A DNA stretch of 64,000 nt, from contig CAYYSX010000002.1 in assembly GCA_964474315.1 (NCBI GenBank), forward strand, positions 8,938 through 72,937, in the 5' to 3' direction. Origin of the DNA: an uncultured Verrucomicrobiota bacterium. Its GTDB lineage: Bacteria > Verrucomicrobiota > Verrucomicrobiia > Limisphaerales > UBA9464. The position numbers were made by a program, and so were the translations under genes. Shown piece by piece: positions 7,896-60,207 of this stretch. The first letter of the stretch is position 1, and the number at the start of each line of letters is the position of its first letter. The notes beneath the pieces are model-generated. The model was not told the DNA's origin. It ran no database searches and saw only the letters and a list, made by a program, of their open reading frames with translations.

Positions 7896-9509
7896 TTAGT
7901 CGTTGACACGGAAGAACTGGAGATCGTCCTCCAACGGTAGCGTGACCGTGGTCTCACTGGTGGTGGTGGTGTCAGCCCAGGACCCGGCGCTAAGCGAGGG
8001 GCGCTTCTGCACGGTGTAGGGCGGAGTGCCGCCGGTCCAGGTCAGCCGCAACTCGCCGTCCACCAACGCGGACTGCACCGCGATGGGCTGATCCGTCGCC
8101 GGATACACGACCGGCGTGAACGCGCCGCTGGGATTTAGCAGGCCGCCGTTGCCGATGGCGGTCCAGTCCACCGCCCAGTTCCCGACGCTGGTAAAGGCGC
8201 CGTAGTAGGCGGCCGGCACATAGAAGCCGTCATTCGGAGCCGACCCAGGCGCGGTGTTGGCCGGGCTGTCCGGTTGCGGACGCGGGTCCAACACCAGGTC
8301 GTCCGTCCAACTAATGCCGCGGAGTTCAGGGTCCACCTCCGTCTGGTTGCCATTGGCAGGGGCGAAGAGGGAATCGGGAGTGAAGGTGGAAACGGAGAAG
8401 TTCCACCACAGGTTGTTCTGCACGGTGGGATTGGCTCCGGTCGAAAACTCCCCGCCGGTCACCGGCTGCCCGTTGAAGTCGGTGAAGATCCCGTTGAGCA
8501 CCTTCACCTGCGTGTACGCCCGGAAGGTGAACGCATTGTTCCCCGAGCCGGCTCCTTCCCGTGCTCCCGCCCCAATCAAGGTCGCGTTGTACACTTCCCA
8601 GTTGGACACCGGCACCCCCGTGCCCGTGATCCGGTCCTGCGGTTCCCCGTTGATTTCCATCCCCTTTTCCACGCTGTCGGTCGGCTGGATCCCAAACCAG
8701 AACTGGTTCTTCCCGCTGTACCCCTGGTCCGCGTCAAAGGACTCGTCCTGGTTGAACGCACTCACCAGATACCGCGTGTTCACCGAACCCCCGAAAAACT
8801 CAAACCCATCGTCTGAGTTGGCGTACACTTCGATGTACTCCACGGTGGTACCCCGGCCCACCCCGCACAGCGACAGACCGTTCACCTCTTTGTTCGACTC
8901 CAAGAGTTTGCCTCCGTGGCGGATCGACAGGTAGCGCATCACCCCAGAGTCATCCTCGTCGTCGGCTCCGCCATAACGGTTCACAAACTGGCCGCTGGTC
9001 GGATCCTGAGTGTCAGGCAAGCCCTCATAGACGTCGTATTTGGGGCTGGCGGCATCGCCGGCGGCGCTCACCGCGTTGTTGATCCGCGCCCGTCCCAGCA
9101 CGATCACCCCACCCCACAACTGCACGTCGCTGGGTCCCAGGTCGAAGGGATCGCTGACGTCGTCCTCTTCGGCCGTGAAGATGATGGGGTTTTGTGGGGT
9201 GCCTTCGGCGATGATCTTGGCCCCCTGGCAAATGAACAGGTTGCCGAAGTTGCCGCTGGTCGTTCCCGCCACCCCCTTGATCACCGTGCCTGGCTCGATC
9301 TGCAGTACCGCTCCCTCCACCACATGGACAAACCCCTGCAACACATAGATGTTGGTGTTCTGCCACACGTTCGTCCCCGTCAGAAATCCCGCCGGTATGT
9401 TTACGGTCTCGGCGTGACCCGAGTTGAGCAACGGGAGCGTCCAGAGCAGGCTGGCCAGGAGCCGGAGCGGACGTCCGAGTGAGTTGATATGATTCATTGG
9501 ATTGATCAT
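7896..9509 (-). CDS. secreted hypothetical protein (signal peptide; conserved central YLSIRHGG...NGLSLCGVG...DDGFEFFGG region; C-terminal beta-sandwich-like tail)
   Basis: 537-aa ORF. N-terminal signal-like LRLLASLLWTLPLLNSGHA. C-terminal tail LRLTWTGGTPPYTVQKRPSL..WADT...LQFFRVND resembles the tails of the proteins at 37130 and 41875. Confidence 0.6.
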   Translation of the reverse strand: MINPMNHINSLGRPLRLLASLLWTLPLLNSGHAETVNIPAGFLTGTNVWQNTNIYVLQGFVHVVEGAVLQIEPGTVIKGVAGTTSGNFGNLFICQGAKIIAEGTPQNPIIFTAEEDDVSDPFDLGPSDVQLWGGVIVLGRARINNAVSAAGDAASPKYDVYEGLPDTQDPTSGQFVNRYGGADDEDDSGVMRYLSIRHGGKLLESNKEVNGLSLCGVGRGTTVEYIEVYANSDDGFEFFGGSVNTRYLVSAFNQDESFDADQGYSGKNQFWFGIQPTDSVEKGMEINGEPQDRITGTGVPVSNWEVYNATLIGAGAREGAGSGNNAFTFRAYTQVKVLNGIFTDFNGQPVTGGEFSTGANPTVQNNLWWNFSVSTFTPDSLFAPANGNQTEVDPELRGISWTDDLVLDPRPQPDSPANTAPGSAPNDGFYVPAAYYGAFTSVGNWAVDWTAIGNGGLLNPSGAFTPVVYPATDQPIAVQSALVDGELRLTWTGGTPPYTVQKRPSLSAGSWADTTTTSETTVTLPLEDDLQFFRVND

Positions 9510-9656
9510 GTTATGTTACCATGCCCGGCATTGTGCTGAGAGGATCTGCACCGGAGCCCCTGACCGATGAGGGCTGCGGGAAACGAGGTCATGGCCGCCA
9601 TGTTACATGACGGAAACGAAACCAACCCGGGCCAGGGACGACACGCGGACGGTACG

Positions 9657-36499: not shown

Positions 36500-37084
36500 T
36501 CATAACGCCGCCAGAATGCGATCCCATTGGCGGGCATGAACATCGATGCTGCCTTCCGTCCAGACGACAAAACGGGCCCGGGTGATCTTCTCTTCCACGG
36601 GCAACTGCGCTGCGTTGCGAGCATCGATGTCGCCTTCGGACCAGCCCCGTTCGGTCAATCGCTTCCGTTGCGACGCCTTAGTACATGCCACGGCGACAAC
36701 CGCAGAAAACTCCGCCTCATAGCCCCGTTCGAACAATAGAGGGATCAAGACCGCTGCGTGGGTCTGACCTTCCCGTGCCCATTGCTGTACCTGAGCCCGC
36801 CAAGCTAGCGCGATGCGGGGATGCAGGATGGTTTCCAAACGTTCCCGCGCCTCCGTCTGGCTAAAAACTACCTCCGCCAATCTGGCACGGTTCAAAGAAC
36901 CATCCGGATGAAGCATCGCGACGCCGAATGCTTCCCGGATCTCCGCCAATCCCGGCGTACCTGATTCGGTTGCCTGCCGGGCCAAGGCATCGCTGTCCAC
37001 GACCCGGATACCTCGGGCCTCAAGCAGACCACCGGCCGTGGATTTTCCCATTCCGATTCCACCGGTCACCCCGAGCAACTTCAT
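36500..37084 (-). CDS. coaE: dephospho-CoA kinase
   Basis: 194 aa. P-loop LLGVTGGIGMGKST at the N-terminus, with typical length and layout. Confidence 0.9.
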   Translation of the reverse strand: MKLLGVTGGIGMGKSTAGGLLEARGIRVVDSDALARQATESGTPGLAEIREAFGVAMLHPDGSLNRARLAEVVFSQTEARERLETILHPRIALAWRAQVQQWAREGQTHAAVLIPLLFERGYEAEFSAVVAVACTKASQRKRLTERGWSEGDIDARNAAQLPVEEKITRARFVVWTEGSIDVHARQWDRILAAL

Positions 37085-37129
37085 CCATCAAAACGGAAAA
37101 GGCCGCCCCATCGGGCGGCCCTCACTTGC

Positions 37130-40100
37130 TCAGGGTTTAACGACAACCCGATAGGCCTTCAGCGGCGCATCTGGATCCACCGGATCCCGGACCGAGAGAC
37201 GCTGAGTCACATTGGAGGTGTTTTGGGCCGTCTTCACCGGCTCCCATTGTCCTGAGACAAGAACCTGGGTGGATTGAACCTCATATGTCTGCCCTGGCGC
37301 GGCATTCCATTGAACCTCAATCAAAGAACCTTCCACCAATCCCACCTGGCTGATCACAACCAAATCGAACGGCGATGGATCGGATGCATTCGGGATGCCA
37401 TCGCCATCAGAATCGATTGAGGTGCTGAACCGGAGAGCCCGGGGAACGCGTAGCACTCGTCCATCACCACCCGCGACCTCCACCCATTCGGGAACTCCGG
37501 AACTGCCGTCTTCCACCCAACGGAGCGTCCCACCTCCGGCAGTTACGAAACCGTCCAGCGACGCAGGATCCACGTTATCACTCGTTCCCGCATAATAGAG
37601 GGTCATCCCTTCGACCAGAATCAGAGAATTCTCCAGGTTCACCAGGATCTCATCACTCAAGATCAAGGTCTCCACGTAGATGGCGTTCTTAACCCCCACG
37701 GGAGCAAATGAAATCACGCCTCCGAATCCGACATTGAGGGCCAGTGCTCCCAAGGCCGCGTTGTCGGTGTATCCCGCCCGAGTCGCTCCCACGTCGTCCG
37801 CCGCCCAGAAGGATAAGATTTCGGTAAAATCCGGGGCGAGGAGATCCACCGTTGTTCCCAGCAGATTTCCAACGGCGGGTTTGACCACGAGATTGACCCC
37901 GTAGGTGGCCGACACATAGCTCGGGTTGTCCAGGCCACCATCCCGAATGGCTCCCGGAACATTCAGGGTGAAAGCTCCGCCAATGAACGCGCCCAAGCCG
38001 GTCAGATCGGCTTCATTCGCTGTCAGGAACGCGTTGCGAACACTGCTGAGTGTGCCGCCCTCGTTGACAAATTCATCCGCGGTAACCACCAAATCGCCCC
38101 CTTCGGCAAACAGGGTACCACTGAGGTCGAAGGTGTCCGATCGGAGGTTGATTCCGGTGGCACGGATCAAGCCGGAGTTATTGATGCTCTGAAGCGGTGT
38201 ACCAGGGGAGACGCCCAAGCCAAGGAATGACGGAACGGTGAGCGAACCGCTGTTCGTCAGGTTCACCAAGTTGGGAAGAGCGGCCGCGGTCAAGTCCCCA
38301 ATGCCCGTCAAAACGAGATTTCCAGCCAGGTTCAGATTCTCGGCCGTACTGGAGAAGTCGCCATCGACTAGAAGCTCATCTTGAATATCGACGGTCGTGG
38401 AACGAAGGATGAGATCATTGACCAGAGTCTGCCGGGCCGTGTCCAATGAGTTTTGGATCACCGTTACATGGTAAATCGCCACGTAGGTGGTGGTCTCCTC
38501 CGCTTCCGCTCCACAAGGACCGTCTTCGTCAATCACTCCATCCCCATCCGTATCACATCCATCCGCGGTGCCATCCCCATCCAAATCAATGTCTGTCCCA
38601 CCACCGTTGGTCACGGTCAAATCGAACGAATTGGTGAACGTCGTGGAGAAAATGGCGAAGGAACCGCCAAAACGGGATACCGATCCCTTGGCCAAATCCT
38701 TGATCTCCAGAGGCCCATTGGTGGAACCAAGATCATAGTTCAAAATCGGAGCATCAATCACCGCGCCACGGCTGGTCTTGAGATTGTCGGCCCGAATTGA
38801 AACCGATCCCTGCCCCTGGATCCGGGCGTTGCGCAGGTCCAGTTCCTTGGCGTCGATCGCCACCCGCCCGGCAATGTTCGTAATCGAGGCACCGGGCACC
38901 GGAGTCGGTGCAATCAGGTCGAACAACGTCACTCCGTCGATGGCACCGATGGGAATAAAGGTGATGTCACTGAGGCTTTGCGAGGGAAACCGCAGTAGCT
39001 CTCCGGCCCAAGTCACGTAAAGATTGGTGGTGACTAGATTGGTCATCTCCATTCCGTCGGGAAACGCTTCGTCAAACCAAGTCGTGAACAGCGAAGGACT
39101 GAAGGTGGCGTTCGGCGTCAACGACCCAATGGGCGTGTCGGGATTGAAACGCGGAGGATAAGCACGAAATGCGAACAAATTGGTGGGCGCCTGTGAGTTC
39201 AAGGTCAACCCATTCAACAGAAGCTCGGTCAGCGGACTGGAACCGAAATTGTCGGCGATGACGAACTGCGTGGCGATCGTCGAGGTCCCTTGTCGGACCA
39301 AGTCTGGCTGGATTGAGGTGAACCGGACGTAAGCGGTCTTGGCGGGAAAATCCCGGCTCGGTCCATTGGCCCAACTGACGTCGATGACGACATTGGTATC
39401 AGGATTGGCAACGAAGACGATCTCGAACTGCTTGTTGGTGGTGGTGGGTTGGTCGGCCCAGACAAACACGGCCGGATTCTGCAGCGTGAGGCTGGCAAAC
39501 GGAGGCTCCGTGTCATCGGGAGTCGCATTCTCCGTCACTTGAGTATAAATATAGAATCCACCCGTACTAACGGTCAGGTTAGTAAGGCCCTCGGGATCCA
39601 CGTTCTCAACGGCGAAGGTAAACGGATCCAGGGCCGAGAATCCGTAGCGCCACCAGCGGTCGCGGACGTCCGTCTCCGGAGAAAAGCTTTCTTCGTCAAG
39701 GCCAACCGAAGGTTGGAATCGGAATGGGTCCGGGACGTAACGTAAAGTCCGGAAGGTGCTGAATTCCAGTGGCGTTGAACCGACCTTGCTGGAACTTAAG
39801 TCCACGTTGTCTCCGCGAATTTCAATCGAGCCGGCATAGAAACCTTCAATCGTGCCGCGGTTAATGATGTTGGTGGCATTCAATGAAACGTAACCACCAT
39901 ATAGGGGAAACAGATCGTTGGGCAGGCCGGTGAGACTCATGTTGACCGACAAGTTGGCAAACTCACCGGAAATGGTAGCGCCGGGAGAGTTATAGATTTG
40001 CGCCGCCCGGCGCCGGATCCCCGCATCGTCGATATATTGGAGGTTGAACCCCGGAACGGAGCTCATGAAGTAGGTGTTGGTATAGTACAACGTGTTCTGA

Positions 40101-40312
40101 GTTTCAAAGGGCATTACCGGATTCAGGTACTCCCCGAAGAATATATTCGGTTGACCTCCAATGATAAAAGTCCCGGTGTTAATAAACGCCTGGGCGTCAA
40201 TCATGATCGGATCCGGATTACGCCCGGAATTCTCGTACACAGGGGCCGGGGCGGCCTTGAGCAAGAGCGTGGCGGTAAGCACAACTCCGAGAGCAGTGAA
40301 CCAGGTTTTCAT
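37130..40312 (-). CDS. giant secreted protein (1060 aa) with Asp-rich Ca-binding-type loops and conserved C-terminal tail; last gene of the secretin operon
   Basis: ATG 40312 gives MKTWFTALGVVLTATLLLKAAP (signal peptide); the maximal ORF starts at TTG 40354. Contains DLDGDGTADGCDTDGDGVIDEDG and DSDGDGIPNASDP loops. Tail: IEVQWNAAPGQTYEVQSTQVL..WEPV...KAYRVVVKP. Confidence 0.7.
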   Translation of the reverse strand: MKTWFTALGVVLTATLLLKAAPAPVYENSGRNPDPIMIDAQAFINTGTFIIGGQPNIFFGEYLNPVMPFETQNTLYYTNTYFMSSVPGFNLQYIDDAGIRRRAAQIYNSPGATISGEFANLSVNMSLTGLPNDLFPLYGGYVSLNATNIINRGTIEGFYAGSIEIRGDNVDLSSSKVGSTPLEFSTFRTLRYVPDPFRFQPSVGLDEESFSPETDVRDRWWRYGFSALDPFTFAVENVDPEGLTNLTVSTGGFYIYTQVTENATPDDTEPPFASLTLQNPAVFVWADQPTTTNKQFEIVFVANPDTNVVIDVSWANGPSRDFPAKTAYVRFTSIQPDLVRQGTSTIATQFVIADNFGSSPLTELLLNGLTLNSQAPTNLFAFRAYPPRFNPDTPIGSLTPNATFSPSLFTTWFDEAFPDGMEMTNLVTTNLYVTWAGELLRFPSQSLSDITFIPIGAIDGVTLFDLIAPTPVPGASITNIAGRVAIDAKELDLRNARIQGQGSVSIRADNLKTSRGAVIDAPILNYDLGSTNGPLEIKDLAKGSVSRFGGSFAIFSTTFTNSFDLTVTNGGGTDIDLDGDGTADGCDTDGDGVIDEDGPCGAEAEETTTYVAIYHVTVIQNSLDTARQTLVNDLILRSTTVDIQDELLVDGDFSSTAENLNLAGNLVLTGIGDLTAAALPNLVNLTNSGSLTVPSFLGLGVSPGTPLQSINNSGLIRATGINLRSDTFDLSGTLFAEGGDLVVTADEFVNEGGTLSSVRNAFLTANEADLTGLGAFIGGAFTLNVPGAIRDGGLDNPSYVSATYGVNLVVKPAVGNLLGTTVDLLAPDFTEILSFWAADDVGATRAGYTDNAALGALALNVGFGGVISFAPVGVKNAIYVETLILSDEILVNLENSLILVEGMTLYYAGTSDNVDPASLDGFVTAGGGTLRWVEDGSSGVPEWVEVAGGDGRVLRVPRALRFSTSIDSDGDGIPNASDPSPFDLVVISQVGLVEGSLIEVQWNAAPGQTYEVQSTQVLVSGQWEPVKTAQNTSNVTQRLSVRDPVDPDAPLKAYRVVVKP

Positions 40313-40350
40313 AGGCGGTAGGGAGAAACGTTCGCTCGGTCGCTTGAAGG

Positions 40351-41871
40351 TCAAGGGAAAAGTGTGCTTTCCAATTCCTGGAGTCCAGATCCTACCGGAT
40401 AAACAATGGGGGCGTTAGTGGTTCCATCGTAGGACCCCCAAACGAAGCCCCGGGTTCCGGAAAGCTGGCTGCCATTTCCAATATTAAAAATCCACGGCCC
40501 AACCTTATTGAGCACGATTTGAACTCCGGTATCCACAATCCCCGGGCCATCCTGGACCGCTCCGACGCCGGGATTGGCTTCCGTCAGAAACACGTTCCCC
40601 GCGACCTCATAGACATAGGGTTGCCCAAGGTTGGGATCCCCTCCGAGGTCGCCGGCTGAAAAGAGGATGTCAGGCTGGAGGATGGTTCGCTCGGTCACCT
40701 GGCGAACGGCGATACCGTTGGTATTGATCACCGTCTCCGGGTAGCTAACGCTTACGGGAACCAGGAACTGCCCCAAAAGCGGATCCGTATCCACTCGAAC
40801 ATAACTGAGCTTTCCCGGTCCAGAGCGTCCACCCACCGGGATGAAGCTGGTCGCCGTGACTACTCCATTCGTATCGGTGACCCCTCCTCCGATAGGCCCG
40901 CCCACCACCGTCCAGGGAGAAATGGGATCGGGAACAACAATCTGGAATGAGATGTTGATCCAAGGAGATCCGTCGCCACCTCCGAAGGTTCCCGAGGAGC
41001 TCCCGAAGGAACCAGTGGGGGCCGACTGCCAATTGACGTTGTCGGGGCGGTATATGTAGCGAATGGCCCCGACATCATCACGAGTGAGGCCACTATAGAA
41101 CAGTCCGAATCCATCAGCCACGAGGCTGGCAGGCCCGTAAACCTGGGAATAAACTCGCGGATCCGTGGCGCCAGCCTGCAACCCGGCCGTGGCCACTACG
41201 CTAACGTTCGGATTGGCCACATCCACGGCGAGCTCCTGACAATCCCAAGTGTCTGGATCGGCACTGATCTGGAGAATCTGATAAGTGTAAAGGCTGCCAT
41301 TGACATAGGCCGATGGCCGAAATGATACCGGATCGAAGTTCCGTTGGATGATGTTGTAGTAGTACTGTTGGGGGTCGGTGTTGGGAATGGGACGCTGCTG
41401 GAAGATGGTCCAGGTATAGCGCTCGGGACAGGCCAACCCCAGAGTCTGAAGGAGGATGGATAGCGTGATGGATTTTACATCCCGCAGCCGAAGCTGCTGC
41501 GCGGTATAGTTGAACCGAGTGGCGTTGAGAGGGTATTCCGTGAGGCCCGAACTCATTGAGGAGGTCGAGGGCAGGTCGTTCAGAATCTGAATGGCGGCTT
41601 CGACTGCGGCGACTCCATTGGTGCCGTAATACTCCACAAACGACGAGTCGAAACCATATACTACCACCGGACTGCCCCATCGATACTCTTCCCCCACGTT
41701 CATAGGTCCACCAACATCGTTAGGGATCGCGATGGTGGTAAACGGCCCATTGTAATTTAGTGCAGGAAGCTGGTAGGTGGCAAAGGGCCCCATCAAGGAA
41801 AAGGCCCGCGCCGAGCCGCCCAGTCCTGCCAGAAGCAGCACCGGCAAAAGATACTTGAGAAAGTTTCGCAT
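40351..41871 (-). CDS. secreted hypothetical protein (506 aa), Gly/Pro/Val-rich, no recognisable domain
   Basis: Signal peptide MRNFLKYLLPVLLLAGLGGSARA followed by FSLMGPF. The start lies 3 nt after the stop of the upstream gene. Confidence 0.7.
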   Translation of the reverse strand: MRNFLKYLLPVLLLAGLGGSARAFSLMGPFATYQLPALNYNGPFTTIAIPNDVGGPMNVGEEYRWGSPVVVYGFDSSFVEYYGTNGVAAVEAAIQILNDLPSTSSMSSGLTEYPLNATRFNYTAQQLRLRDVKSITLSILLQTLGLACPERYTWTIFQQRPIPNTDPQQYYYNIIQRNFDPVSFRPSAYVNGSLYTYQILQISADPDTWDCQELAVDVANPNVSVVATAGLQAGATDPRVYSQVYGPASLVADGFGLFYSGLTRDDVGAIRYIYRPDNVNWQSAPTGSFGSSSGTFGGGDGSPWINISFQIVVPDPISPWTVVGGPIGGGVTDTNGVVTATSFIPVGGRSGPGKLSYVRVDTDPLLGQFLVPVSVSYPETVINTNGIAVRQVTERTILQPDILFSAGDLGGDPNLGQPYVYEVAGNVFLTEANPGVGAVQDGPGIVDTGVQIVLNKVGPWIFNIGNGSQLSGTRGFVWGSYDGTTNAPIVYPVGSGLQELESTLFP

Positions 41872-41874
41872 GGA

Positions 41875-43755
41875 TCAACGAAGAAGATTGACGCGGTAGT
41901 AGGCGTTGTTGGGTAGGTCTCCCACCGGAATCGAGTCAGTGCTGCCCGCCGCCAAACGAGGCGCTCCGATGTCGGCCCACTCCTTCAAACTCGTGGAGTA
42001 CTGTGCTTGATAGAAGGCCCCAGAACGGCTGTTCCAACTCAAGATGACTCCCTGCGGACTGCTGGTCAGCCGGGTCTTCAAGACGCTGGCGGCCGACCGC
42101 GGATCCGTGCCGGCGAGAAATTCCTCCCGATCAGTGACCCCATCGCCATCCGAGTCCGCAGACGGCAGAGGCCAGAGAGCGGGGTTGCTACCGAAATGCA
42201 GCGCCTGCCAGTCGTCAGGAAGGCCATCCGCATTGTCGTCTTCGCCCCAAGTTCGGCCGGTGGCCGGAGCGGAGAGGGGCGAACGACGACCATCCTGGAG
42301 GACATAGGCCAAACGAACTGTATGGGAGGAACTGGGGGCGAGGCCACCGACCGAATACGTCGAGGCCGTCAAAGCGACGGGCGATTCGGCGCCGTCCACA
42401 TAAAGTTCGTAATGCTTCAGCGGAAGCCCTGACAGTTCAGCCCACGTCACCAGCAACCTGGAGGAGGAGGCCGCAAAGACGTACGGAGCTGAAGGCTCGG
42501 CGAGCGTGGCCATGGCGCGGCTGTAGCGTTGCGCAGCCAGATCCATTCCGCGGGCGGAGCCTCCAAACGTGCTCCATACCGCGAGTACTCGTCCCGCCCC
42601 GTCGGAAGCAACGGCTGGCGTCATTTGATCTCCAGTCGTCGCGGTGTTCACCACAAACTCATCCCCGACCAACTGTCCATCCGGCGTCAACCATTGGCCC
42701 ACAATGCCGTATCCGGCACCGTCGCCCCCCTCGCTGCGATAAATCACCAGTACCGAATCCCCATCCGCCGCGAGTCGGGGAAATCCTTGGAATCCAAGGC
42801 GCCTGGTGTTCACCAAGCTTGGAGACGAAATGGGGCCGGTGGACTGGAAAGCCCGGGTTTGGATGTCCCACACCGCCCCCGGCGTTTCATGGTCATGTTC
42901 CGCCCAAGCGGCCAGAAAGCCTCCGGCCGATAGACCTAACAAGGCCGGGGTGGCACAAGGACGGTGGGAAACATTGATGGGAAACTCCGGCTGCAACGCT
43001 GCCCCGGTCGCGGTCAAAAAACGCGCAAAGACGTCCACGCGGTTCTGACCGCGTTGCTGTTCAGAGATCCAAGCCACCACAAAACTTCCGTCCGTCAGCG
43101 CCGCTACCGAAGGTGAACGCTGATGATACTGGGTGTACTGGTTCACAGAAAACGGAGCCTCCTCCAAGGCTCCCTTGGCCGAGAGGAGCCGGGCCTGAAC
43201 GCCCAGCATGCTTCCATCGACCCCATCGGCTGCCCAAACGACCAGAACCTGGCCGTCTCTATTGACGGCGATCACCGGATCCCGGTTATCCACCCCGTCG
43301 CCGGAGATGATGAACTCGGGACCCGCGAACTTTCCGTCTGGATTGATGACCCGGCCAACAATGGACTGAGCTCCCCGAATTCCGCCTTGCCAAACGACCA
43401 GCCCACCACCGTCGGAAAGTAACGCCACCTGGGGGTTTTCCTGGTCTCCGGCACCCACCTCGTTAACCCGAAAGGAACTGAGACCGGTCAATTGCCCCGT
43501 GAGTCGTCGGGCGCTGATCCCAAAGCCATCGCCATCGGTGCTGTTGTCCTGCCACACGAGCCATCCCCCCGCACTTCGGAACGCGACTGCCGGTGATATC
43601 TGATCACCCACCGGCGAACCGGCCGCGAGGTACTGCCCACCGCTGGGGGCAAGATCTCCCGCTCCCATCGCAGAAACTCCGAGCAGCCATGCTACAGCCG
43701 CTGGAAGCATTCGCCGGATGGAAAGCGATCCCCCACTTGTTCTGGCGTTTGACAT
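41875..43755 (-). CDS. secreted repeat protein (626 aa): 7x propeller-like repeat + FN3-like domain + Asp-rich loop + conserved C-terminal tail
   Basis: ATG 43755 (MSNARTSGGSLSIRRMLPAAVAWLLGVSAMGAG). Seven repeats of the type GDQxxPxVA..dG..vVW....dG....i.ar. Then DSDGDGVTDREEF. Tail: ILSWNSRSGAFYQAQYSTSLKEWADI...AYYRVNLLR. Confidence 0.7.
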   Translation of the reverse strand: MSNARTSGGSLSIRRMLPAAVAWLLGVSAMGAGDLAPSGGQYLAAGSPVGDQISPAVAFRSAGGWLVWQDNSTDGDGFGISARRLTGQLTGLSSFRVNEVGAGDQENPQVALLSDGGGLVVWQGGIRGAQSIVGRVINPDGKFAGPEFIISGDGVDNRDPVIAVNRDGQVLVVWAADGVDGSMLGVQARLLSAKGALEEAPFSVNQYTQYHQRSPSVAALTDGSFVVAWISEQQRGQNRVDVFARFLTATGAALQPEFPINVSHRPCATPALLGLSAGGFLAAWAEHDHETPGAVWDIQTRAFQSTGPISSPSLVNTRRLGFQGFPRLAADGDSVLVIYRSEGGDGAGYGIVGQWLTPDGQLVGDEFVVNTATTGDQMTPAVASDGAGRVLAVWSTFGGSARGMDLAAQRYSRAMATLAEPSAPYVFAASSSRLLVTWAELSGLPLKHYELYVDGAESPVALTASTYSVGGLAPSSSHTVRLAYVLQDGRRSPLSAPATGRTWGEDDNADGLPDDWQALHFGSNPALWPLPSADSDGDGVTDREEFLAGTDPRSAASVLKTRLTSSPQGVILSWNSRSGAFYQAQYSTSLKEWADIGAPRLAAGSTDSIPVGDLPNNAYYRVNLLR

Positions 43756-43901
43756 AGTTTTCCAATTGCCGAGCGCGTGGCAGTCAACGGTGCAGTGATC
43801 CAAAGTATGCCTTTCGTTCACTTTCGCAAACATTCGTTCTCCCGTCTCGGTTAGCGTTTACGGTCTTGGTGTTTTCAACCGGTCGGTTGATGATGCGGGC
43901 C

Positions 43902-46706
43902 TCATTTTGGCCGGAATCCGGCCCGCGCGTCGGGAACGGTGTTGGGATCGTAGGGCATGGCGTTCGGGTCGTTCACCCGGCGGCCAGAAGGATCAAGGAT
44001 GGTTGGAGTCACGAAGATCAGGAGGTTCTTCTTCACCGTGGCAGACGATTCACTGGTAAACAGGCGGCCGATCAGCGGGAGATCGCCGATAATGGGAACC
44101 TTGTCCCGCTGCTTACGGGAATCTTCGGCGATCAAGCCGCCCAAGACTACAGTTTGGCCATCCCACACGATGGCGGAAGTCACCACCTGCCGAGTTCGCA
44201 AACGCGGAAGGGGCAATGTGGCCGTCAGAGGAATGCCAATGGTGTTGCCGGCGACCGACTGCGCCTGAGGCACAAAGGCTCCCGGATCATCATATCCCAC
44301 AAATTCCGTCACCACCGGAATCAGGGTCATTTGGATGGAGACGTCGTCGGCAGAGACATAGGGGATGACATTGAGTTCCGGGCCAAAAGGGACCGTTTGT
44401 ACGGTGTAATTCAGGGTAGGGGCGACACCGCCGCCACCCGTGCCAAAGCCACCCCCGAATCCACCGTCAGTGGCGCCACCGCTGGCGGTTTGCTGAAGAT
44501 CCACACCGGTAACAATGGTACGGACATCGGCCGTTACAATCTGGGCTTGCCGGCCGCTGAGCGTGGTGACCTTGGGAGCCGCCAAGACGTCCACCCCATC
44601 CCGCTGTTCCAGGGCCGAAATGGCGACACGGAACTGTGGATTGGTGAGAATCCCGGTGATCGTGGCGAGCGTTGGGATCGCGGTCTGATTGCGGTTCGCA
44701 TCCGTATAACTGGAGCGGAGGCCAGCCGTCACATTACCGTCAGTGGCAGCAGGCGGGATCGTCGTATCGAAGAAGTTATCCGGCACACCCGGGACCCCGA
44801 TCGAAGCAGGAACGCCGGGAAAAGTGCCATATGGGTTGGCCGAAGATCCTGAAGTTCCTGGACTTCCCATGGAAGGGGCAGTGCCTCCTTGAGCCCCCAC
44901 CCGTCCGTTGCCAATAACCCAGTTCCCAAACCACCACTGGAAGCCCAACGCTTTGGCATCGGACTGAGTGACTTCGGCAAACTTGGCCTCAATCTCCACC
45001 TGGGGCGGAGCAACATTAAGGGCCGCAATGGCCTGTTCGATCACATCCAGATCGGACAGGGTTGCGCGGACGAACAGGATTCCGGTTCGGTCGTTGAAGA
45101 AGAGGGCCTTTTGATTGGCGTTTGGATCAGCCAGTCCGTCGAGACCAAGCGTTGGTTGGGTGAACCCGGCGCCTTGCTGACCGGGCAAGGCCGTGGCCGG
45201 AAAATCAACTCCGCAGGCTCTGAAGAAGTCTCGGACCACCAGCTGAACATTGGCCATCAAGTTCGTACGCGTTACTGCGGTGATGCCTACGCCTTGTTGT
45301 CCACCGCCACCGCCACCGCCACCACCGCCACCGCCCTGCGCCACTCCCGAGGAGGCTTCGACCCGAGGGACAGTAAAGATGCCCTGCTGGCCGCCGGCAC
45401 CACCGCCACCACCGCCACCGCCACCGCCGCCGCCGCCGCTTCCCACCTGCAAGTCGCCGAAGGGGAATCCGACGACCGCTTCAAGACCTTGCAAGAAGGT
45501 ATTCGGATCCACACGGAAAGAGCGGGTATGCAACTGGGGATTTTCGGGCAACCGCTGGGTGAATACGATCGCGTAGTCCTCAATGGAGATTTTGAGCGGA
45601 CGCTCCGCCACCTTGGCGATGGCATCGATGGCATCGGCCAGACGGACATCCCGCAAGCCGGGTACCAGACGGATGATGATACTGTTGAGGTCAACCGGCT
45701 CGGCCGGCGCCGCCGGAATCGGCGCACCCGTGTTCGGGTCAATCTGCGGAACCGCGGACGGGGGGATGACATCCATGGTGGAGTTGATGATGAAGTTGAG
45801 CCCGCGTCTCTCTGGATCACGCGCGCGGGCTTGCTCATCCAGGTATTTCACCACTTCGCTCAGCGGTACGCCGTCAAACTTGACCTCATTCAGGACGATC
45901 CGGTCGAGCTTGTTCTGAATCAGTTGGCGGCCCGCCCCGGTGTAAATGAGATTGGTGCGGGCGAAGGGATTGGCGTTGGGCAGGTTGTTGCGCTTGGGAG
46001 CCCAGGCCTGCTCCACCTCAAGAAGCATTTCGCGGGTGGTCAGTTTCTTGAGCTGAGCCGCACGACCAAATCGAGCCTGTTGGATCAGTTCCAAGTAGTA
46101 GTTGGCGGTTCGATTGTCCGGTTGCAACTCCTTGGCTTGCAGGAGGAGCTTTTCAGCCTCTTCCAAGCGACCCGCTTCATAAAGCAGCTTGCCGTCGTTG
46201 GCGAGAGTCGATGCTTGGAGGTCTTGTTGCTTGAGGGCGGGAATCTGGGAAAGAGCCTCTTCGGAAGGCAGCTTGCCAACCAGGCTGGAGAGGCGCCGGT
46301 CATTCTCGGCCTTAAAGCTCTGGGCCACCGTATTGGAGGGATCTACCTTGAGGGCGCGACTGACCTGGACATTTGCTTCGCGGTAATCGCCGCGGCGGGA
46401 GGCCGCCACGGCCAAATCAACGCGGGTCGTGGAGAGGCCGGTGCGCACTTCGGCCCGCTCCGCTTCCGCGGCGGCGCCCAACTGCTCCGTAAGGGTCCAG
46501 GCATCTTCATAAAGTTTGGCCGCGGCCGGCAGATCCTTGGCCGCCGTGGCGATTTGCGCGGCCTCAATAGTCTTGCGCAACAGGATGAGTTTTTCCTGTC
46601 GGCGGACCGACTCTTCTTCGGCGACCTGGTTCGCCGACTGGGACAACAGCGGCTGGGCTGCGGCGAAGAGCAGCAACAGGCTGAGGAGACGAGACAGTTT
46701 CAACAT
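43902..46706 (-). CDS. type II/III-secretion-family secretin (PilQ/GspD-like) with N-terminal TPR region and two poly-Gly linkers
   Basis: 934 aa. Signal peptide, TPR-like repeats (LLYEAGRLEEAEKLLLQAKELQPDN) and two Gly runs. C-terminal secretin domain: VLAAPKVTTLSGRQAQI...VVLGGLIAEDSRKQRDKVPIIGDLPLIGRLF...LLIFVTPTIL. Confidence 0.9.
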   Translation of the reverse strand: MLKLSRLLSLLLLFAAAQPLLSQSANQVAEEESVRRQEKLILLRKTIEAAQIATAAKDLPAAAKLYEDAWTLTEQLGAAAEAERAEVRTGLSTTRVDLAVAASRRGDYREANVQVSRALKVDPSNTVAQSFKAENDRRLSSLVGKLPSEEALSQIPALKQQDLQASTLANDGKLLYEAGRLEEAEKLLLQAKELQPDNRTANYYLELIQQARFGRAAQLKKLTTREMLLEVEQAWAPKRNNLPNANPFARTNLIYTGAGRQLIQNKLDRIVLNEVKFDGVPLSEVVKYLDEQARARDPERRGLNFIINSTMDVIPPSAVPQIDPNTGAPIPAAPAEPVDLNSIIIRLVPGLRDVRLADAIDAIAKVAERPLKISIEDYAIVFTQRLPENPQLHTRSFRVDPNTFLQGLEAVVGFPFGDLQVGSGGGGGGGGGGGGGAGGQQGIFTVPRVEASSGVAQGGGGGGGGGGGGQQGVGITAVTRTNLMANVQLVVRDFFRACGVDFPATALPGQQGAGFTQPTLGLDGLADPNANQKALFFNDRTGILFVRATLSDLDVIEQAIAALNVAPPQVEIEAKFAEVTQSDAKALGFQWWFGNWVIGNGRVGAQGGTAPSMGSPGTSGSSANPYGTFPGVPASIGVPGVPDNFFDTTIPPAATDGNVTAGLRSSYTDANRNQTAIPTLATITGILTNPQFRVAISALEQRDGVDVLAAPKVTTLSGRQAQIVTADVRTIVTGVDLQQTASGGATDGGFGGGFGTGGGGVAPTLNYTVQTVPFGPELNVIPYVSADDVSIQMTLIPVVTEFVGYDDPGAFVPQAQSVAGNTIGIPLTATLPLPRLRTRQVVTSAIVWDGQTVVLGGLIAEDSRKQRDKVPIIGDLPLIGRLFTSESSATVKKNLLIFVTPTILDPSGRRVNDPNAMPYDPNTVPDARAGFRPK
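45301..45335 (-). repeat. coding GGN-codon run (poly-Gly, 12 residues) inside the secretin gene
   Basis: The + strand reads CCACCGCCACCGCCACCGCCACCACCGCCACCGCC, which encodes GGGGGGGGGGGG in the secretin frame. Confidence 0.9.
45391..45440 (-). repeat. coding GGN-codon run (GSGGGGGGGGGGGGGAGG) inside the secretin gene
   Basis: The + strand reads GCCGCCGGCACCACCGCCACCACCGCCACCGCCACCGCCGCCGCCGCCGCT. This is the second poly-Gly linker, about 20 residues N-terminal of the first. Confidence 0.9.
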
Positions 46707-46752
46707 GGTACTTGCGGTTGGAAAAATCCGTAAAACAGGGTGGGAGGGACGC

Positions 46753-47532
46753 TCAATCGGAGGACAGCTTGATGATCGTGCGGGTGCCGTTGGGTGCGGA
46801 AATTACAAGTTCCTCTTTGCCAATGGCAACAATCTTGTAGGTCGTGCCGGCCAGCACGAGGGTGTCATCAGCGCGCTTTCCCGGAAAGTCGCGGTTTTCG
46901 AAGCGGAGGTCGGCCTGGTATCCCATCACCTTCTCGAAGGGCTTCCCTTTGGCCAAGGTCACCTGCTCGCCGCCCGCCAGTTCGATCACCACCTCACCGG
47001 CCGAATCCTTGGGACCGCGCACTTCTCGCAGAAGGAAAAAATTGTTCTTGGTCCCTTCGGTCAGCGACAGCGTGACAGGGCGTCGTTCGCTTGGTCTCTT
47101 AGCGTGTTGCTGTTCGATGGCGAATTGGTAGCGATACGGATCACCGATTCCGGTCGGACCGACATAGGTGACGCTCAGGTTGAGTGGGCGGATCGCCACC
47201 ACTTTGAGTGTCGCGGCGAGGTTTCGACCCGGATCCGGCTTCAGTTCGCTTGGATTAGCACCGCGAATCCAACGGACCGGATTGAACACGTTGTGGTCGC
47301 CCGACAAATTGAGATTCACCGGCTGGGACATCCTCTGAACGGCAGCGACGGAATTGGTGAGGTCCACCGGCGGCAGCGGTTTCCGACTACCACGCACCCT
47401 CGTTTGGAGCTGCTCGTCCAGCGAGGATTGGACCGCACTGACCGTCTGGGTCAGCCAAAAGGCAGCGGCGGCGACGACCAGGAGGACTACGCTGAGAATG
47501 AGCTTTTCGTAGTGCTTCTTCAGAAAATCCAT
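46753..47532 (-). CDS. bitopic membrane-anchored hypothetical protein (positional equivalent of Amuc_1099 in the Akkermansia pilus-like cluster)
   Basis: 259 aa. Single N-terminal TM helix (LILSVVLLVVAAAAFWL). Sits between the Amuc_1100-like gene and the secretin. The equivalence is by position only. Confidence 0.55.
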   Translation of the reverse strand: MDFLKKHYEKLILSVVLLVVAAAAFWLTQTVSAVQSSLDEQLQTRVRGSRKPLPPVDLTNSVAAVQRMSQPVNLNLSGDHNVFNPVRWIRGANPSELKPDPGRNLAATLKVVAIRPLNLSVTYVGPTGIGDPYRYQFAIEQQHAKRPSERRPVTLSLTEGTKNNFFLLREVRGPKDSAGEVVIELAGGEQVTLAKGKPFEKVMGYQADLRFENRDFPGKRADDTLVLAGTTYKIVAIGKEELVISAPNGTRTIIKLSSD

Positions 47533-47565
47533 GACGACCAGGAAGAGGGGGTGGCGGGTACGGTA

Positions 47566-48582
47566 CTAGTTCACCGCGTTGGGGCGCCCCGGATTCTCGG
47601 CCTTGTCACGGGGAAGGAGTTTGACCAATTCGATACCAAGAGTGACGCGGAGCGGCTTCTCGTCGAGAACCACTTCTCCGGGACGGTTGGCAGTCGGTAG
47701 CGCTACCTGTGGAACCGCGGGCTGCCCTTGATACCGTCCTGGGGTGAGTCCATAACGCCGAGCCAAAGTCGGATCTCTGGCATAGGGGCTGGCCCCTGGC
47801 ATCGCCATCGGCATGGCGGCGGTTGACGTCGCGGGCGTGTCGAGATTTCCGCGCTCGACATTGAGTGTTTTGACGATGAACGACTCCGGCGCCTCTACTA
47901 AGCCCATCAAGACAGCGGCGAGTTCCTGACTGAAGACTTGAACCACCACCTCATAGGGGTAGCTCACCGAGTTCATCGCCGAGTTGGTGGTAATCTTGCG
48001 GGTCAAAAAGGCACCCGTTCCGGCCGATTCATTGGTCCCCACCGGCGCACGCTTGAAGGAAACGATGGACGGAACTTTGGCGTCAAACAGAATGCGGCAC
48101 AGACTCTGGATGTCGGCCAATTGCGCCGAAAGAGATGGCAACGAACTGACGGAGAGCTGAAGCTGTTTGCGTTGTTCGTCGAAGGTAAATCCGTAGGTAG
48201 GACTGGAGCCTTTATCCGGAAGCTGCACCCCGGCCCGTTCCGCTTCTCGAGTCAATTCTGTGATCGTGGCTTCGAGATGTGATTTGAATCCGGCGGTATC
48301 GAGCCCTTCAGGAGGGGTTCGTTCCGTAAAATGATTGCGGGCCTCCTTGATGAAACGTTGCACCCGCGCTTCCTCCTCCTTAGCCAACTGTATGTTGGCA
48401 GTGTCGGGGTACACCGGACGCTGAACCAGGCTGTCTAACTGGCTGTTCTTGGCCTGCAATTCCGCGTCCACGCCATCCGCCTCGCTCTTGGTACCCAACA
48501 AGTACCAGACCCCGGCGCCCATCAGGACCACAGCGACGGCAAGCGCAATGACAAAGCCGAGGTTTTTCTTGACCCAGTCCAT
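47566..48582 (-). CDS. Amuc_1100-family pilus-like protein (bitopic, coiled-coil N-region)
   Basis: 338 aa. N-terminal TM helix (LGFVIALAVAVVLMGAGVWYLL), a coiled-coil segment and a C-terminal ...PLRVTLGIELVKL. The architecture and neighbours (PilM-like upstream, secretin downstream) match my recollection of Amuc_1100. Not aligned. Confidence 0.6.
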   Translation of the reverse strand: MDWVKKNLGFVIALAVAVVLMGAGVWYLLGTKSEADGVDAELQAKNSQLDSLVQRPVYPDTANIQLAKEEEARVQRFIKEARNHFTERTPPEGLDTAGFKSHLEATITELTREAERAGVQLPDKGSSPTYGFTFDEQRKQLQLSVSSLPSLSAQLADIQSLCRILFDAKVPSIVSFKRAPVGTNESAGTGAFLTRKITTNSAMNSVSYPYEVVVQVFSQELAAVLMGLVEAPESFIVKTLNVERGNLDTPATSTAAMPMAMPGASPYARDPTLARRYGLTPGRYQGQPAVPQVALPTANRPGEVVLDEKPLRVTLGIELVKLLPRDKAENPGRPNAVN

Positions 48583-48583
48583 A

Positions 48584-50455
48584 TCAGAGCTTGATGGGGC
48601 GTTTCAGTTTCACCTTGAGCGGGAAGGAGAAGGAGGGAGAGTCAGAAGAAACTTGCTCCAGATTTCCCGACAGCAGGGTTTCCTTACCATCGAAGATCTC
48701 GGAACCCTGCATCGCCTTCTCCACCGCGTAGGCAATTTCACTGTTGGCTTTGGGATTCAGATTGACGGAACGGATGGTGAGGTTGATCACCGCGACCTCG
48801 TTGGTGTTGGCCGGACCCTTGGACTCCGGTTTGGCCGGTTCCGCGCCTTCGCCGCCTTCACCCTCGCCCATCGGTCTCATCGGCATCAGGCCATAGCGTC
48901 GAGCCAGGACCGGATCCATCCGATAGAATCCCCCTGGCCCCGAGGACTCCTCGACCGCATCCGCCACGGCCAAATCCTTGGATGGCTCGGTGGACAGGAG
49001 GGTATCGATCCAGATTCCAACGGGTACGCCCAGTCGCGATCGTGATTCAGCCTCCGTCCCTTCGAGTACGGCTCGGAGTTCTCCCAGGATCTGCACCCAA
49101 GTCAGACGGTCTTCGACCCAGGTACCGAACTGCGTGGCTTCCTCCGTGACCTGTCTCAGGCGCCCCTCGGCGGACTCCAACTGAGCCTTGGTTGCCTCCA
49201 GCGGCTGAAGCTGTTGGTCAATTTTGGCCAACCCATCGCGTCGCACTTCGGCGACCCGCGAAAAGAACCAGCCGACCGCAAAGACTCCCAAGACCGCGGC
49301 GTAAGCGGCGGCGATCAAGAAGGGTTTCTTGGCATTGAACTGCTGACGGGCCAAGGAAGCACGCGGCATCAGGTTCAGCTCCACCGGGCATTGGGCCACG
49401 TTGCGAAGGCCAAGACCGATGACCTCGCCAAACTGTGGAGCGAGGCCTTCCAACCGGGACACATCGACCGACGGGTCGATTTCGACGTTGCGAAACGGAT
49501 TGAAGAATTCGACCGGGAGGTTGAGCTTTTCCTCAAAAAACTGCGCCGCATAAGGCATCAGCGAGCCGCCCCCGCACAGGAAGACGCGGACTGGCGTTGC
49601 CCCCCCTTGCTGGGTGCGGTAAAATTGAATGGTCTGATTGACCTGGAGATGGAGGCGGGTCAGGACATTCCGGGCGACTTTGGACACGGCGGCAATCCGC
49701 GGATTGTCCGGCTCCTCGTAGGCCCCACCGAGACTGACGAAACCGTCGCTGACCTTGAATCTCTCGGCCTCATCGAACCGCATCTTGCCCTCAGCGGCGA
49801 ATTCTTGAGTGATGGCGTTGGCCCCGACATTGACGCTGCGGGCGTAGTACTTGGTAGGCTCGAACAGGAGGACGTTGCTGGTCTTCGCCCCGATGTCGAT
49901 CAACAGGCTGCAGCCTTCCTGATCCCCGTAGTTGTAGCGGAAGGCATTCGCCAGAGCCCCAATGGAGGCATCCACCACCTGCATCCTCAGGCCGGCTGCT
50001 TCGCCGGCGCCGAAGATCTGCTTCTCCACGACCTCGGACTTGATGGCAACCAACAGGACCTCGAGTTCCCCATTCGCACTGGTGCCGAGGATTTGGTAAT
50101 CCCAAGCGGTTTCGGCAAGGGGGAACGGTACATTCTGTTGTGCCTCGTACTGAATGATTTGCGTAACTTTCGAGGTATCAACCGGGGGTAGCTTGACGAA
50201 CTTGGAGAAAACCTGGAACCCCGGGGCGCATAGGTTGACATCCTTCGAGGTGAACCCGCCTTCGGCGAGCAACTCGGCCAGGGCCTTCTTCACCGCACCC
50301 TCGCGAGCCGCATCCTGTGACCCGGCGAGACCGAGCGGTTTCAGGCCAAAACGCAACAGGCGCAGACCGCTGTTCTCGGCCGGCGCCAGCTCCGCGATCT
50401 TCAGGGTCCCTGCCCCGAAGTCCACCGCCAGAAAAGTTTTCGACGTTTTGAGCAT
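48584..50455 (-). CDS. type IV pilus assembly protein PilM fused to a PilN-like TM/coiled-coil module and a C-terminal extension
   Basis: ATG 50455 (MLKTSKTFLAVDFGAGTLKIAELA). Actin-like ATPase fold motifs (LLIDIGAKTSN, VFLCGGGSLMPY). Then a TM helix KKPFLIAAAYAAVLGVFAVGWFF and a coiled coil. The maximal ORF starts at 50527. Confidence 0.8.
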   Translation of the reverse strand: MLKTSKTFLAVDFGAGTLKIAELAPAENSGLRLLRFGLKPLGLAGSQDAAREGAVKKALAELLAEGGFTSKDVNLCAPGFQVFSKFVKLPPVDTSKVTQIIQYEAQQNVPFPLAETAWDYQILGTSANGELEVLLVAIKSEVVEKQIFGAGEAAGLRMQVVDASIGALANAFRYNYGDQEGCSLLIDIGAKTSNVLLFEPTKYYARSVNVGANAITQEFAAEGKMRFDEAERFKVSDGFVSLGGAYEEPDNPRIAAVSKVARNVLTRLHLQVNQTIQFYRTQQGGATPVRVFLCGGGSLMPYAAQFFEEKLNLPVEFFNPFRNVEIDPSVDVSRLEGLAPQFGEVIGLGLRNVAQCPVELNLMPRASLARQQFNAKKPFLIAAAYAAVLGVFAVGWFFSRVAEVRRDGLAKIDQQLQPLEATKAQLESAEGRLRQVTEEATQFGTWVEDRLTWVQILGELRAVLEGTEAESRSRLGVPVGIWIDTLLSTEPSKDLAVADAVEESSGPGGFYRMDPVLARRYGLMPMRPMGEGEGGEGAEPAKPESKGPANTNEVAVINLTIRSVNLNPKANSEIAYAVEKAMQGSEIFDGKETLLSGNLEQVSSDSPSFSFPLKVKLKRPIKL

Positions 50456-59460: not shown

Positions 59461-60207
59461 CTAGCGCAACGGCACCCCTTGGGTGTCGGTGTAGAATTCC
59501 CACGGATAGTCGGAGCCAGGAGGCTCGGCACCTGTGACTCCAGGTCGAAACACCCTCCGGCTGGTCACGGTCCCGTCCCGCTGCGCACGCAGGACCAATC
59601 CCTCGTACCGGAGGAAATCCTTGAAGTTCGGGGCGGTCGCCGAAGTGGGAACACGTACGCCATGGAGTTGGCAAATCGCCATGCCGGTTTCCGACCCCAT
59701 GGCGGCCAGCCGTTGCCACGCCTGCCGACGCCAGGACAGCGGATGCAAATACGAGAACGGCTCCGTTTCATTCACTTCCAGTAGTTCGAGCGTCCACGAT
59801 CCCGACTCCGGGTCGCGCAGGTCGTTCTGTCCCATCCAGGGTTCCTGCGACGCATTGGCGATGTTTCCCCAAAACAGGTTGGTGATCATACCCCGCCGGA
59901 GAGCCGGATCCGACGGGCAGATGAATCGGTTGGTGGCGCGGCCCTCGTGGGTATGCTGGATCACCCGGGAGAGTGACCGGGGACGTTTCTCCGTGTCGGA
60001 AGTGTACAGCTCAATGGCCCGAACGACCTGACGGAGATTCTCTCGACAGGTGACTTGCTGCGATCGGACGCGAGCGTGCGCAACCGCGGAGCTCGCGAGC
60101 GTGGCGAGTGTAGCGACAACTGCCAGCAGGCTCAGCAGTTCCACCACGGTGAAACCGCCCGTCCGGGCCGACCCCTCCGCCCGTTGAAGGATCCCACGTC
60201 GCGTCAT
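59461..60207 (-). CDS. prepilin-type N-terminal cleavage/methylation-domain protein (pseudopilin-like, degenerate H-X9-DG type)
   Basis: 248 aa from an ATG that overlaps the upstream stop (ATGA at 60204-60207). Class-III signal ...ARTG|GFTVVELLSLLAVVATLATLA with Glu at +5. C-terminal LRAQRDGTVTSRRVF resembles the DG(S/H)V motif of PVC pseudopilin-like proteins. Confidence 0.75.
   Translation of the reverse strand: MTRRGILQRAEGSARTGGFTVVELLSLLAVVATLATLASSAVAHARVRSQQVTCRENLRQVVRAIELYTSDTEKRPRSLSRVIQHTHEGRATNRFICPSDPALRRGMITNLFWGNIANASQEPWMGQNDLRDPESGSWTLELLEVNETEPFSYLHPLSWRRQAWQRLAAMGSETGMAICQLHGVRVPTSATAPNFKDFLRYEGLVLRAQRDGTVTSRRVFRPGVTGAEPPGSDYPWEFYTDTQGVPLR

Follow-up and report, generated by a model that had tools for sequence, protein, structure and literature searches.

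Operons of the pilMNOPQ type, with the organization seen in Pseudomonas aeruginosa, normally contain no genes for pilins, ATPases, platform protein, or peptidase. Among the components of pilus and type II secretion machines, PilP is a lipoprotein, GspC is bitopic, and GspL consists of an actin-like domain, a transmembrane helix, and a periplasmic domain. Few Akkermansia loci have received as much study as the Amuc_1100 cluster, and its mechanism is still being worked out. PMC13174399, citing Davey 2023, equates the Amuc_1098–1101 cluster with the MUL2 locus, linked to mucin handling, and describes mul genes as required for the accumulation of mucin glycans in the periplasm. The gene for the pilin-like protein Amuc_1102 (MUL2A) precedes the PilM gene there (PMC13174399 and PMC5332112), and coaE directly follows the secretin gene in Akkermansiaceae (PMC13174399, legend of Fig. 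2B). Here, we analyzed a cluster of seven genes, g1 to g7, in a 64-kb stretch of DNA (64,000 nt; hereafter, the window) from an uncultured Verrucomicrobiota bacterium. Judged from its profile matches and gene order, the cluster is the form that the Akkermansia MUL2 locus takes in the Limisphaerales/Pedosphaera clade.

Both loci encode a homologous PilM fusion, an Amuc_1100-like protein, and a secretin in one and the same order; a small bitopic protein separates the latter two, and coaE lies downstream. They differ in that here three large genes (g5–g7), or four where a protease gene is present, separate the secretin gene from coaE, and in that no Amuc_1102-type gene lies upstream of the PilM gene, the interval between g1 and the preceding HAD hydrolase gene being empty. 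In addition, g3 matches only the N-terminus of Amuc_1099, and all four core scores fall below the equivalog cutoffs. A preliminary description of the window, made from the sequence alone, had recognized an Amuc_1098–1101-type core, which the profile matches of g1, g2, and g4 bore out, with g3 weak; its view of the Akkermansia cluster as uncharacterized is outdated, given the assignment to MUL2 and mucin handling (PMC13174399).

Organization and conservation of the cluster

Seven long open reading frames (ORFs), lined up in tandem on the minus strand, make up the cluster at 37130–50455, and an ORF check reproduced the co-directional layout, coordinates, and spacers first reported for it:

48584..50455, minus strand: g1, PilM fusion with a cytoplasmic actin-like PilM domain, one transmembrane helix, and a periplasmic extension of ~220 aa
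47566..48582, minus strand: g2, bitopic Amuc_1100-like protein in the PilO/GspM position
46753..47532, minus strand: g3, bitopic 259-aa protein in the PilP/GspC/Amuc_1099 position
43902..46706, minus strand: g4, secretin with a signal peptide, an N-terminal TPR region, two long poly-Gly loops, and a C-terminal secretin domain
41875..43755, minus strand: g5, 626 aa, with a Sec signal, seven ~54-aa repeats, fn3, a TSP3 repeat, and a C-terminal tail
40351..41871, minus strand: g6, 506 aa, with a Sec signal, conserved N- and C-domains, and a Gly/Ser linker, and without the tail
37130..40312, minus strand: g7, 1060 aa, almost all-beta (beta-helix-like), with a Sec signal, Asp-rich loops, a TSP3 repeat, and the tail

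With the start codons of the preliminary description, the spacers from g1 to g7 are 1, 33, 46, 146, 3, and 38 nt. Gene calls recorded for the 75,536-bp source contig agree on g1 (623 aa), g2 (338 aa), g3 (259 aa), g6 (506 aa), and g7 (1060 aa) and use other start codons for g4 and g5.

The g6 family occurred in 426 species-level genomes, all of which were Verrucomicrobiota metagenome-assembled genomes labeled Limisphaerales, Pedosphaera, or similar. In a sample of 79 species-level loci, anchored on g6 and read outward, g1–g7 were colinear and on one strand in all fetched loci as far as the contig reached. Where there was enough sequence, g1–g5 were present in 45/45 loci (secretins split into two ORFs being counted), g5 in 73/73, and g7 in 68/68, and g3 was kept in every locus with enough upstream sequence. 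Four metagenome contigs carrying more divergent members showed the same gene order. The expectation set beforehand, that the three large genes would always partner the secretin cluster, therefore held; the converse, that each such secretin cluster carries the trio, is false in Akkermansiaceae (PMC13174399).

Median identities to the window proteins were 55% for g1, 36% for g2, 40% for g3, 53% for g4, 42% for g5, 39% for g6, and 29% for g7, so that g5 (42%) and g6 (39%) are conserved like the core parts g2 (36%) and g3 (40%). A large environmental sister clade, covering at least 426 species-level genomes of Limisphaerales/Pedosphaera-type Verrucomicrobiota, thus has the same core as Akkermansia, always coupled to three unannotated protein families.

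Large secreted proteins and their C-terminal tail

Each of g5, g6, and g7 has a Sec-type signal peptide, and none has a lipobox; family scans agreed with the initial observation that the three carry Sec signals and no recognizable enzyme domain. Pfam matches in g5 were confined to TSP3_bac and fn3, and the sevenfold propeller repeat noticed at the outset was confirmed as seven propeller-type repeats of ~54 aa, with no Pfam or NCBIfam match to a PilY1/PilC-type propeller. Neither g6 nor g7 belonged to a Pfam or NCBIfam family, and a search of PDB sequences with profiles of all three proteins found the fn3 domain of g5 alone. The structure model of g6 had a predicted local distance difference test score (pLDDT) of 82 and a predicted template modeling score (pTM) of 0.84, and comparison with PDB folds yielded no significant match (best E = 1.5). 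The g7 model (pLDDT 82.7, pTM 0.68) likewise gave nothing significant against the PDB, and against viral models it showed only a weak beta-helix/tailspike resemblance with low template modeling scores. As families, and aside from the fn3 and TSP3 modules of g5, the trio appears to be new, without a Pfam, NCBIfam, or PDB relative despite the confident models.

The g6 family comprised 1,595 representatives at 50% identity, and its alignment showed an invariant FSLxGP at the mature N-terminus. Many members carry a variable insert between the N- and C-domains (a DUF5122 propeller, galactose-binding-like/PPC, or Ig-like domains), a pattern suggestive of a conserved scaffold that presents a variable module. 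g5–g7 may plausibly be cargo or surface-fiber subunits, as had been proposed.

Reciprocal profile searches revealed homology between the C-terminal ~90 residues of g5 and those of g7:

41875..42162, minus strand: g5 tail, a TSP3 repeat plus a ~75-aa beta-sandwich ending in ...YYRVNLLR
37130..37417, minus strand: g7 tail, a TSP3 repeat plus a beta-sandwich ending in ...AYRVVVKP

In the same searches, g6 had no such tail, so the common C-terminal tail first attributed to all three proteins holds for g5 and g7. An iterated hidden Markov model (HMM) of the tail matched 188 of 5,345 ORFs in 1.45 Mb of related loci, and essentially all of these were g5, g7, or a gene inserted between g7 and coaE. 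Such an inserted, tail-bearing gene was present in ~30 loci and encoded proteases of 1,150–1,640 aa, which belonged to the subtilase class (S8) in L020, L053, and L057 and to the fungalysin class (M36) in L001 and L079, while the one in L056 had a sedolisin-type (S53) propeptide; in a few inserted genes, the tail was accompanied by Ig-like or B-repeat domains alone. It ends in [FY][FY]R[VA] plus a few residues at the extreme C-terminus, an ending found in 146 ORFs versus 4 in a truncation control. Its TSP3 part weakly matched an internal stretch of the Amuc_1099 family profile.

The presence of non-homologous proteases in one slot with one tail is hard to explain without a shared functional partner. 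By sequence comparison, the tail common to g5 and g7, its near confinement to the locus, and the interchangeable proteases that bear it all appear to be new. The genuinely new content of the locus is the conserved trio, its unmatched folds, and a locus-specific tail common to swappable proteases. Three sizeable families of unknown function are defined, with confident but unmatched predicted folds, and a protease is often added that is joined to the others by the tail; together, the trio and the proteases provide specific candidates, open to testing, for whatever these machines handle at the cell surface.

Tail-like C-termini were also seen on two other proteins. The window ORF at 7896–9515 (minus strand) encodes a 539-aa secreted protein of no family, whose C-terminus (…LRLTWTGGTPPYTVQ…LQFFRVND) scored ~10 bits with the tail HMM, and a GH53 enzyme in L082 (20768–22144) has a tail-like C-terminus that scored 16 bits.

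Core proteins and type IV pilus components

g1 matched Pfam PilM_2 (E = 7.5e-35) and scored 153.5 bits with TIGR01175 (pilM), above the cutoff of 133. Its match to Amuc_1101_fam (NF045709; E = 4.7e-141, residues 5–465) reached 471.6 bits, below the 650-bit equivalog cutoff. No Pfam match to PilN, PilO, or PilP was obtained at E ≤ 10 in the C-terminal part of g1, in g2, or in g3. The term PilM-PilN fusion, applied to g1 at first, therefore stands for its PilM half and is an architectural description only for the other; by its domain matches, g1 is best described as an Amuc_1101-type fusion with GspL-like architecture.

g2 matched Amuc_1100_fam (NF038287) with E = 9.6e-22, below the 180-bit cutoff, its residues 1–323 covering positions 1–324 of the 326 in the profile, and Pfam PF28028 (Amuc_1100) is present in its L001, L002, and L082 orthologues. 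A search of the PDB with g2 alone found nothing, and a profile search of PDB sequences did not reach the Amuc_1100 chains. g3 showed a weak N-terminal match to Amuc_1099_fam (residues 4–61, 18.2 bits), with no Pfam match and no match in a profile search of PDB sequences. g4 matched Secretin (E = 9.1e-32) and, below cutoff, Amuc_1098_fam (NF042912; E = 8.4e-96); it scored 151.5 bits with the GspD model (cutoff 351) and 115 bits with PilQ TIGR02515 (cutoff 284). The N-terminal TPR region of g4, fused onto the secretin, has weak similarity to the pilotins PilW/Tgl. Since the scores of g1–g4 lie below the NCBIfam equivalog cutoffs, these proteins are distant homologues of the Akkermansia proteins rather than orthologue-level members. 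Among the families that the preliminary description had named for the core, PilM_2, Secretin, and the Amuc_1100 family were thus recovered, and PilN was not.

The low-complexity periplasmic tails of g1 and g2 contain a common motif:

48881..48925, minus strand: RYG motif YRMDPVLARRYGLMP in g1
47737..47787, minus strand: RYG motif PYARDPTLARRYGLTPG in g2

This (M/L)xxRYG(L/M) motif, which reads DPxLARRYGL in the window, was present in 46/47 g1 and 47/49 g2 orthologues and was rare in the other cluster proteins. The g1 motif was aligned to the g2 motif by hhalign. It may be a common docking peptide.

In L001, L002, L024, and L028 (~3.9–7.9 kb), the secretin was called as two ORFs (~800 aa plus 194 aa). 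These split ORFs are probably frameshift errors at poly-Gly (GGC)n tracts in long-read assemblies, not biology.

Compared with the pilMNOPQ operons of type IVa pili (P. aeruginosa, Myxococcus), the cluster has a PilM that meets the TIGR01175 cutoff, the same order of cytoplasmic, bitopic, bitopic, small periplasmic, and secretin components, an operon without pilins, ATPases, platform, or peptidase, a TPR pilotin-like element (fused here), and a PilT-family ATPase elsewhere in relatives. In contrast to those operons, the cluster joins PilM and the following component in one protein, shows no sequence similarity to PilN, PilO, or PilP, has a g3 that is bitopic and not a lipoprotein, and carries three conserved large secreted proteins in addition. 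The resemblance to the type II secretion system (T2SS) lies in the GspL architecture of g1, the bitopic, GspC-like g3, GspD as the best of the classical secretin models, and the encoding of large Sec-dependent proteins and proteases beside the machine. The cluster differs from the T2SS in that no GspE, GspF, GspG–K, or GspO is encoded at the locus, the scores are below the equivalog cutoffs, and the cytoplasmic domain is of the PilM type.

A tblastn search with Escherichia coli HofB, GspE, HofC, GspF, GspO, PpdD, and GspG as queries gave no match in the window. Across 1.45 Mb from 84 related loci, it found no platform protein and no peptidase, one short GspG-like pseudopilin match (L056), and a secretion-type ATPase in four loci. 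In L005, L006, L033, and L065, a PilT/PilU-family ATPase gene lies no more than 10 kb from the cluster, and the window has none; the L005 protein scored 352 bits with TIGR01420 (cutoff 319.1), and the L065 gene is the divergent neighbor of the PilM gene. PilT is 66–94% identical across many Verrucomicrobiota. Its gene is found on the 589,354-bp contig of the L006 cluster and on a 74,367-bp contig; a contig of equal size bears a g6 and a g7 homologue, so that, judged by length, PilT shares a contig with a further g6/g7 pair. One prepilin-like ORF was found in the window:

59461–60309, minus strand: prepilin-like ORF with a prepilin-type N-terminus, GGFTVVELLSLLAVVATLATLA (GGFTVVELL), ~9 kb upstream of the cluster

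This ORF had weak NCBIfam matches to the N-termini of PilA and GspG, and its prepilin-type motif was unique in the six frames of the window.

The reported lack of a pilin, ATPase, platform, or peptidase gene beside the cluster was thus confirmed by tblastn, but a prepilin-like ORF does lie ~9 kb upstream. Because classical pilMNOPQ operons are likewise without these genes, their absence at g1–g7 is not anomalous. Nor is it warranted to call the energy source unknown, as was done initially, since a PilT/PilU ATPase is encoded on the same contig in close relatives. An ordinary split type IV pilus system, named at the outset as the explanation that would displace an undescribed apparatus, is closely approached through PilT in the relatives, but PilB, PilC, PilD, and pilins were not located in the window or the related loci. 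The balance of evidence favors a split ordinary machine over an engine-less one.

In L005 (17831–19077), L087 (11194–12487), and L088 (11134–12397), PilT is followed by two small conserved genes (~220 aa and ~200 aa), the second of which has a weak SNase-like match. The two may be an unrecognized PilT-linked pair.

Possible functions and surroundings of the cluster

With moderate confidence, we favor the reading that the locus encodes part of a split type IV pilus/T2SS-like machine with dedicated, tail-bearing surface or secreted clients. g1–g4 would be the subcomplex of a type IV filament machine that spans the envelope. In it, g1 would provide a cytoplasmic ring of the PilM type, joined to a bitopic part resembling PilN/GspL, g2 would take the PilO/GspM position and g3 the PilP/GspC position, and g4 would be a secretin with a built-in TPR pilotin-like domain. 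Pilins, platform protein, and ATPases would be supplied from elsewhere in the genome, as for pilMNOPQ operons. g5–g7 would be dedicated extracytoplasmic partners that are first exported to the periplasm by Sec and next delivered through, or docked at, the secretin to act at the cell surface. The tail may be a common handle that recruits g5, g7, and, in many relatives, the protease to the apparatus, and g6, which lacks the tail and is conserved like a core part, is likely an adaptor or scaffold. The probable purpose would be the capture and processing of polymeric substrates or surfaces.

We know of no locus-specific beta-sandwich tail that is common to the substrates of the Dichelobacter and Vibrio cholerae pilus machines, which otherwise offer a precedent. 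Type IV pilus machines also secrete proteins, including proteases (subtilases) in Dichelobacter, and V. cholerae provides another case (PMC4471445). In Dichelobacter nodosus and the V. cholerae toxin-coregulated pilus, as in the favored reading, a secretin-containing pilus machine releases Sec-exported proteins, among them subtilisin-like proteases with C-terminal extensions (PMC4471445 and PMC3480457).

Several points weigh against the split-machine reading. In contrast to pilus-dependent secretion, the tie of g5–g7 to the secretin here comes from gene order only, and the synteny was read from g6 outward only. The gap between g4 and g5 exceeded 300 nt in 22/67 loci, some of which hold a 5'-3' exonuclease gene in it, and with such wide gaps g5–g7 may be a separate transcription unit. 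PilB, PilC, PilD, and pilins were not found in the window or in the 84 related loci, and PilB and PilC were not beside PilT on the two long contigs. The tail matched no known sorting domain at E ≤ 10 when six tails and one tail-like C-terminus were scanned against NCBIfam and two against Pfam. The weak tail-like C-termini of the GH53 enzyme in L082 and of the product of window ORF 7896–9515, which lies outside the locus, make a broader domain class possible.

A bolder version, which we hold only tentatively, is that the tail is an undescribed secretion or anchoring signal read by the PilM–secretin machine, with g6 as an adaptor and g5, g7, and the interchangeable proteases as clients. A comparable case is the cargo of the type IX secretion system (T9SS), in which a C-terminal domain (CTD) directs export: in both cases, a ~75-aa C-terminal beta-sandwich recurs on large secreted proteins that are otherwise unrelated, M36 and S8 proteases among them. 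The two differ in that no match to a CTD model and no T9SS genes are found here, and the machine is a secretin system. If true, this would be a Verrucomicrobiota-specific, CTD-directed pathway for export or display, analogous in function to the T9SS and built on a type IV filament/secretin chassis.

It is rather unlikely that g5–g7 form a tip or priming complex, acting like PilY1/PilC with minor pilins and serving as the adhesin at the tip of a type IV pilus that retracts, instead of being released or docked at the secretin. In PilY1, which is exported by Sec, the C-terminal propeller holds a Ca site; g5, which would likewise be exported by Sec, combines a propeller-type repeat of seven blades with TSP3 loops of the Ca-binding type. 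PilT in relatives implies retraction. However, there is no sequence match to the PilY1/PilC families, no minor pilin genes accompany the trio, and proteases with the same tail fit poorly.

Similarly improbable as a sole account is an uptake machine that imports polymers into the periplasm, with g5–g7 and the protease capturing and pre-processing them at the surface and feeding the secretin channel. Such a role has been proposed for Akkermansia MUL2, whose mul genes are needed for periplasmic mucin glycans, and Pedosphaeraceae show selfish uptake (PMC13174399); secretins of type IV pilus systems import DNA (PMC5745081), and a retraction ATPase is present in relatives. No carbohydrate-active enzyme or transporter is tied to the locus in the window, however, and the uptake model overlaps the split-machine reading and does not exclude it.

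We consider it quite improbable that g5–g7 are conserved neighbors only, that is, ordinary surface proteins exported by Sec or another pathway whose genes happen to lie between the secretin gene and coaE. The Akkermansiaceae core works without the trio and has coaE directly after the secretin gene (PMC13174399), and the wider g4–g5 gaps and the inserted exonuclease gene in some loci point the same way. Order and strand are nevertheless invariant at identities down to 25–40% across hundreds of species, the tail is locus-specific, and different proteases are recruited to one slot. Moreover, the sole terminator-like site in the window's cluster comes after g7:

37098–37123, minus strand: strong terminator-like hairpin with an 11-bp stem (8 GC pairs) followed by a T-run, in the interval that separates the g7 stop from the start of coaE (37084)
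36500–37084, minus strand: coaE, the downstream neighbor of g7

No comparable hairpin was seen in the 146-nt g4–g5 gap.

The initial proposal of an autonomous secretin-centered apparatus without pilins or a secretion ATPase, its energy source unknown, is very unlikely: neither the 64-kb window nor most of the related flanks (1.45 Mb) yielded an ATPase, platform, peptidase, or pilin gene, and the Amuc_1102-type pilin-like gene is absent upstream of g1, but to our knowledge PilM proteins occur only within pilin-based machines, PilT-family ATPases that are highly conserved in the clade lie on the same contigs in relatives, and a prepilin-like ORF is present in the window.

Beyond coaE lies a divergent phosphoribosyltransferase gene. 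Upstream of g1 are a HAD hydrolase gene, separated from it by 323 nt, and then recG; the same HAD neighbor is found upstream of the PilM gene in 19 related loci. Scanning the window against Rfam and for tRNA genes gave no matches.

In one sub-lineage, the 5'-3' exonuclease gene between the secretin gene and g5 was located at 7023–7919 in L001, 6977–7933 in L082, and 2206–3102 in L084. This insertion divides the cluster into two blocks and leaves the gene order intact.

GC content is 55–56% at 38000–42000, over g6–g7, versus 60–63% elsewhere in the window. Recent horizontal transfer was rejected as the cause because of the clade-wide synteny, and the low GC content more likely reflects the amino acid composition of these Asn/Thr-rich beta proteins.

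In E. coli K-12 (L085), coaE is one gene (guaC) away from hofC-hofB-ppdD, and the linkage of coaE to type IV pilus genes looks like an old one that spans phyla.

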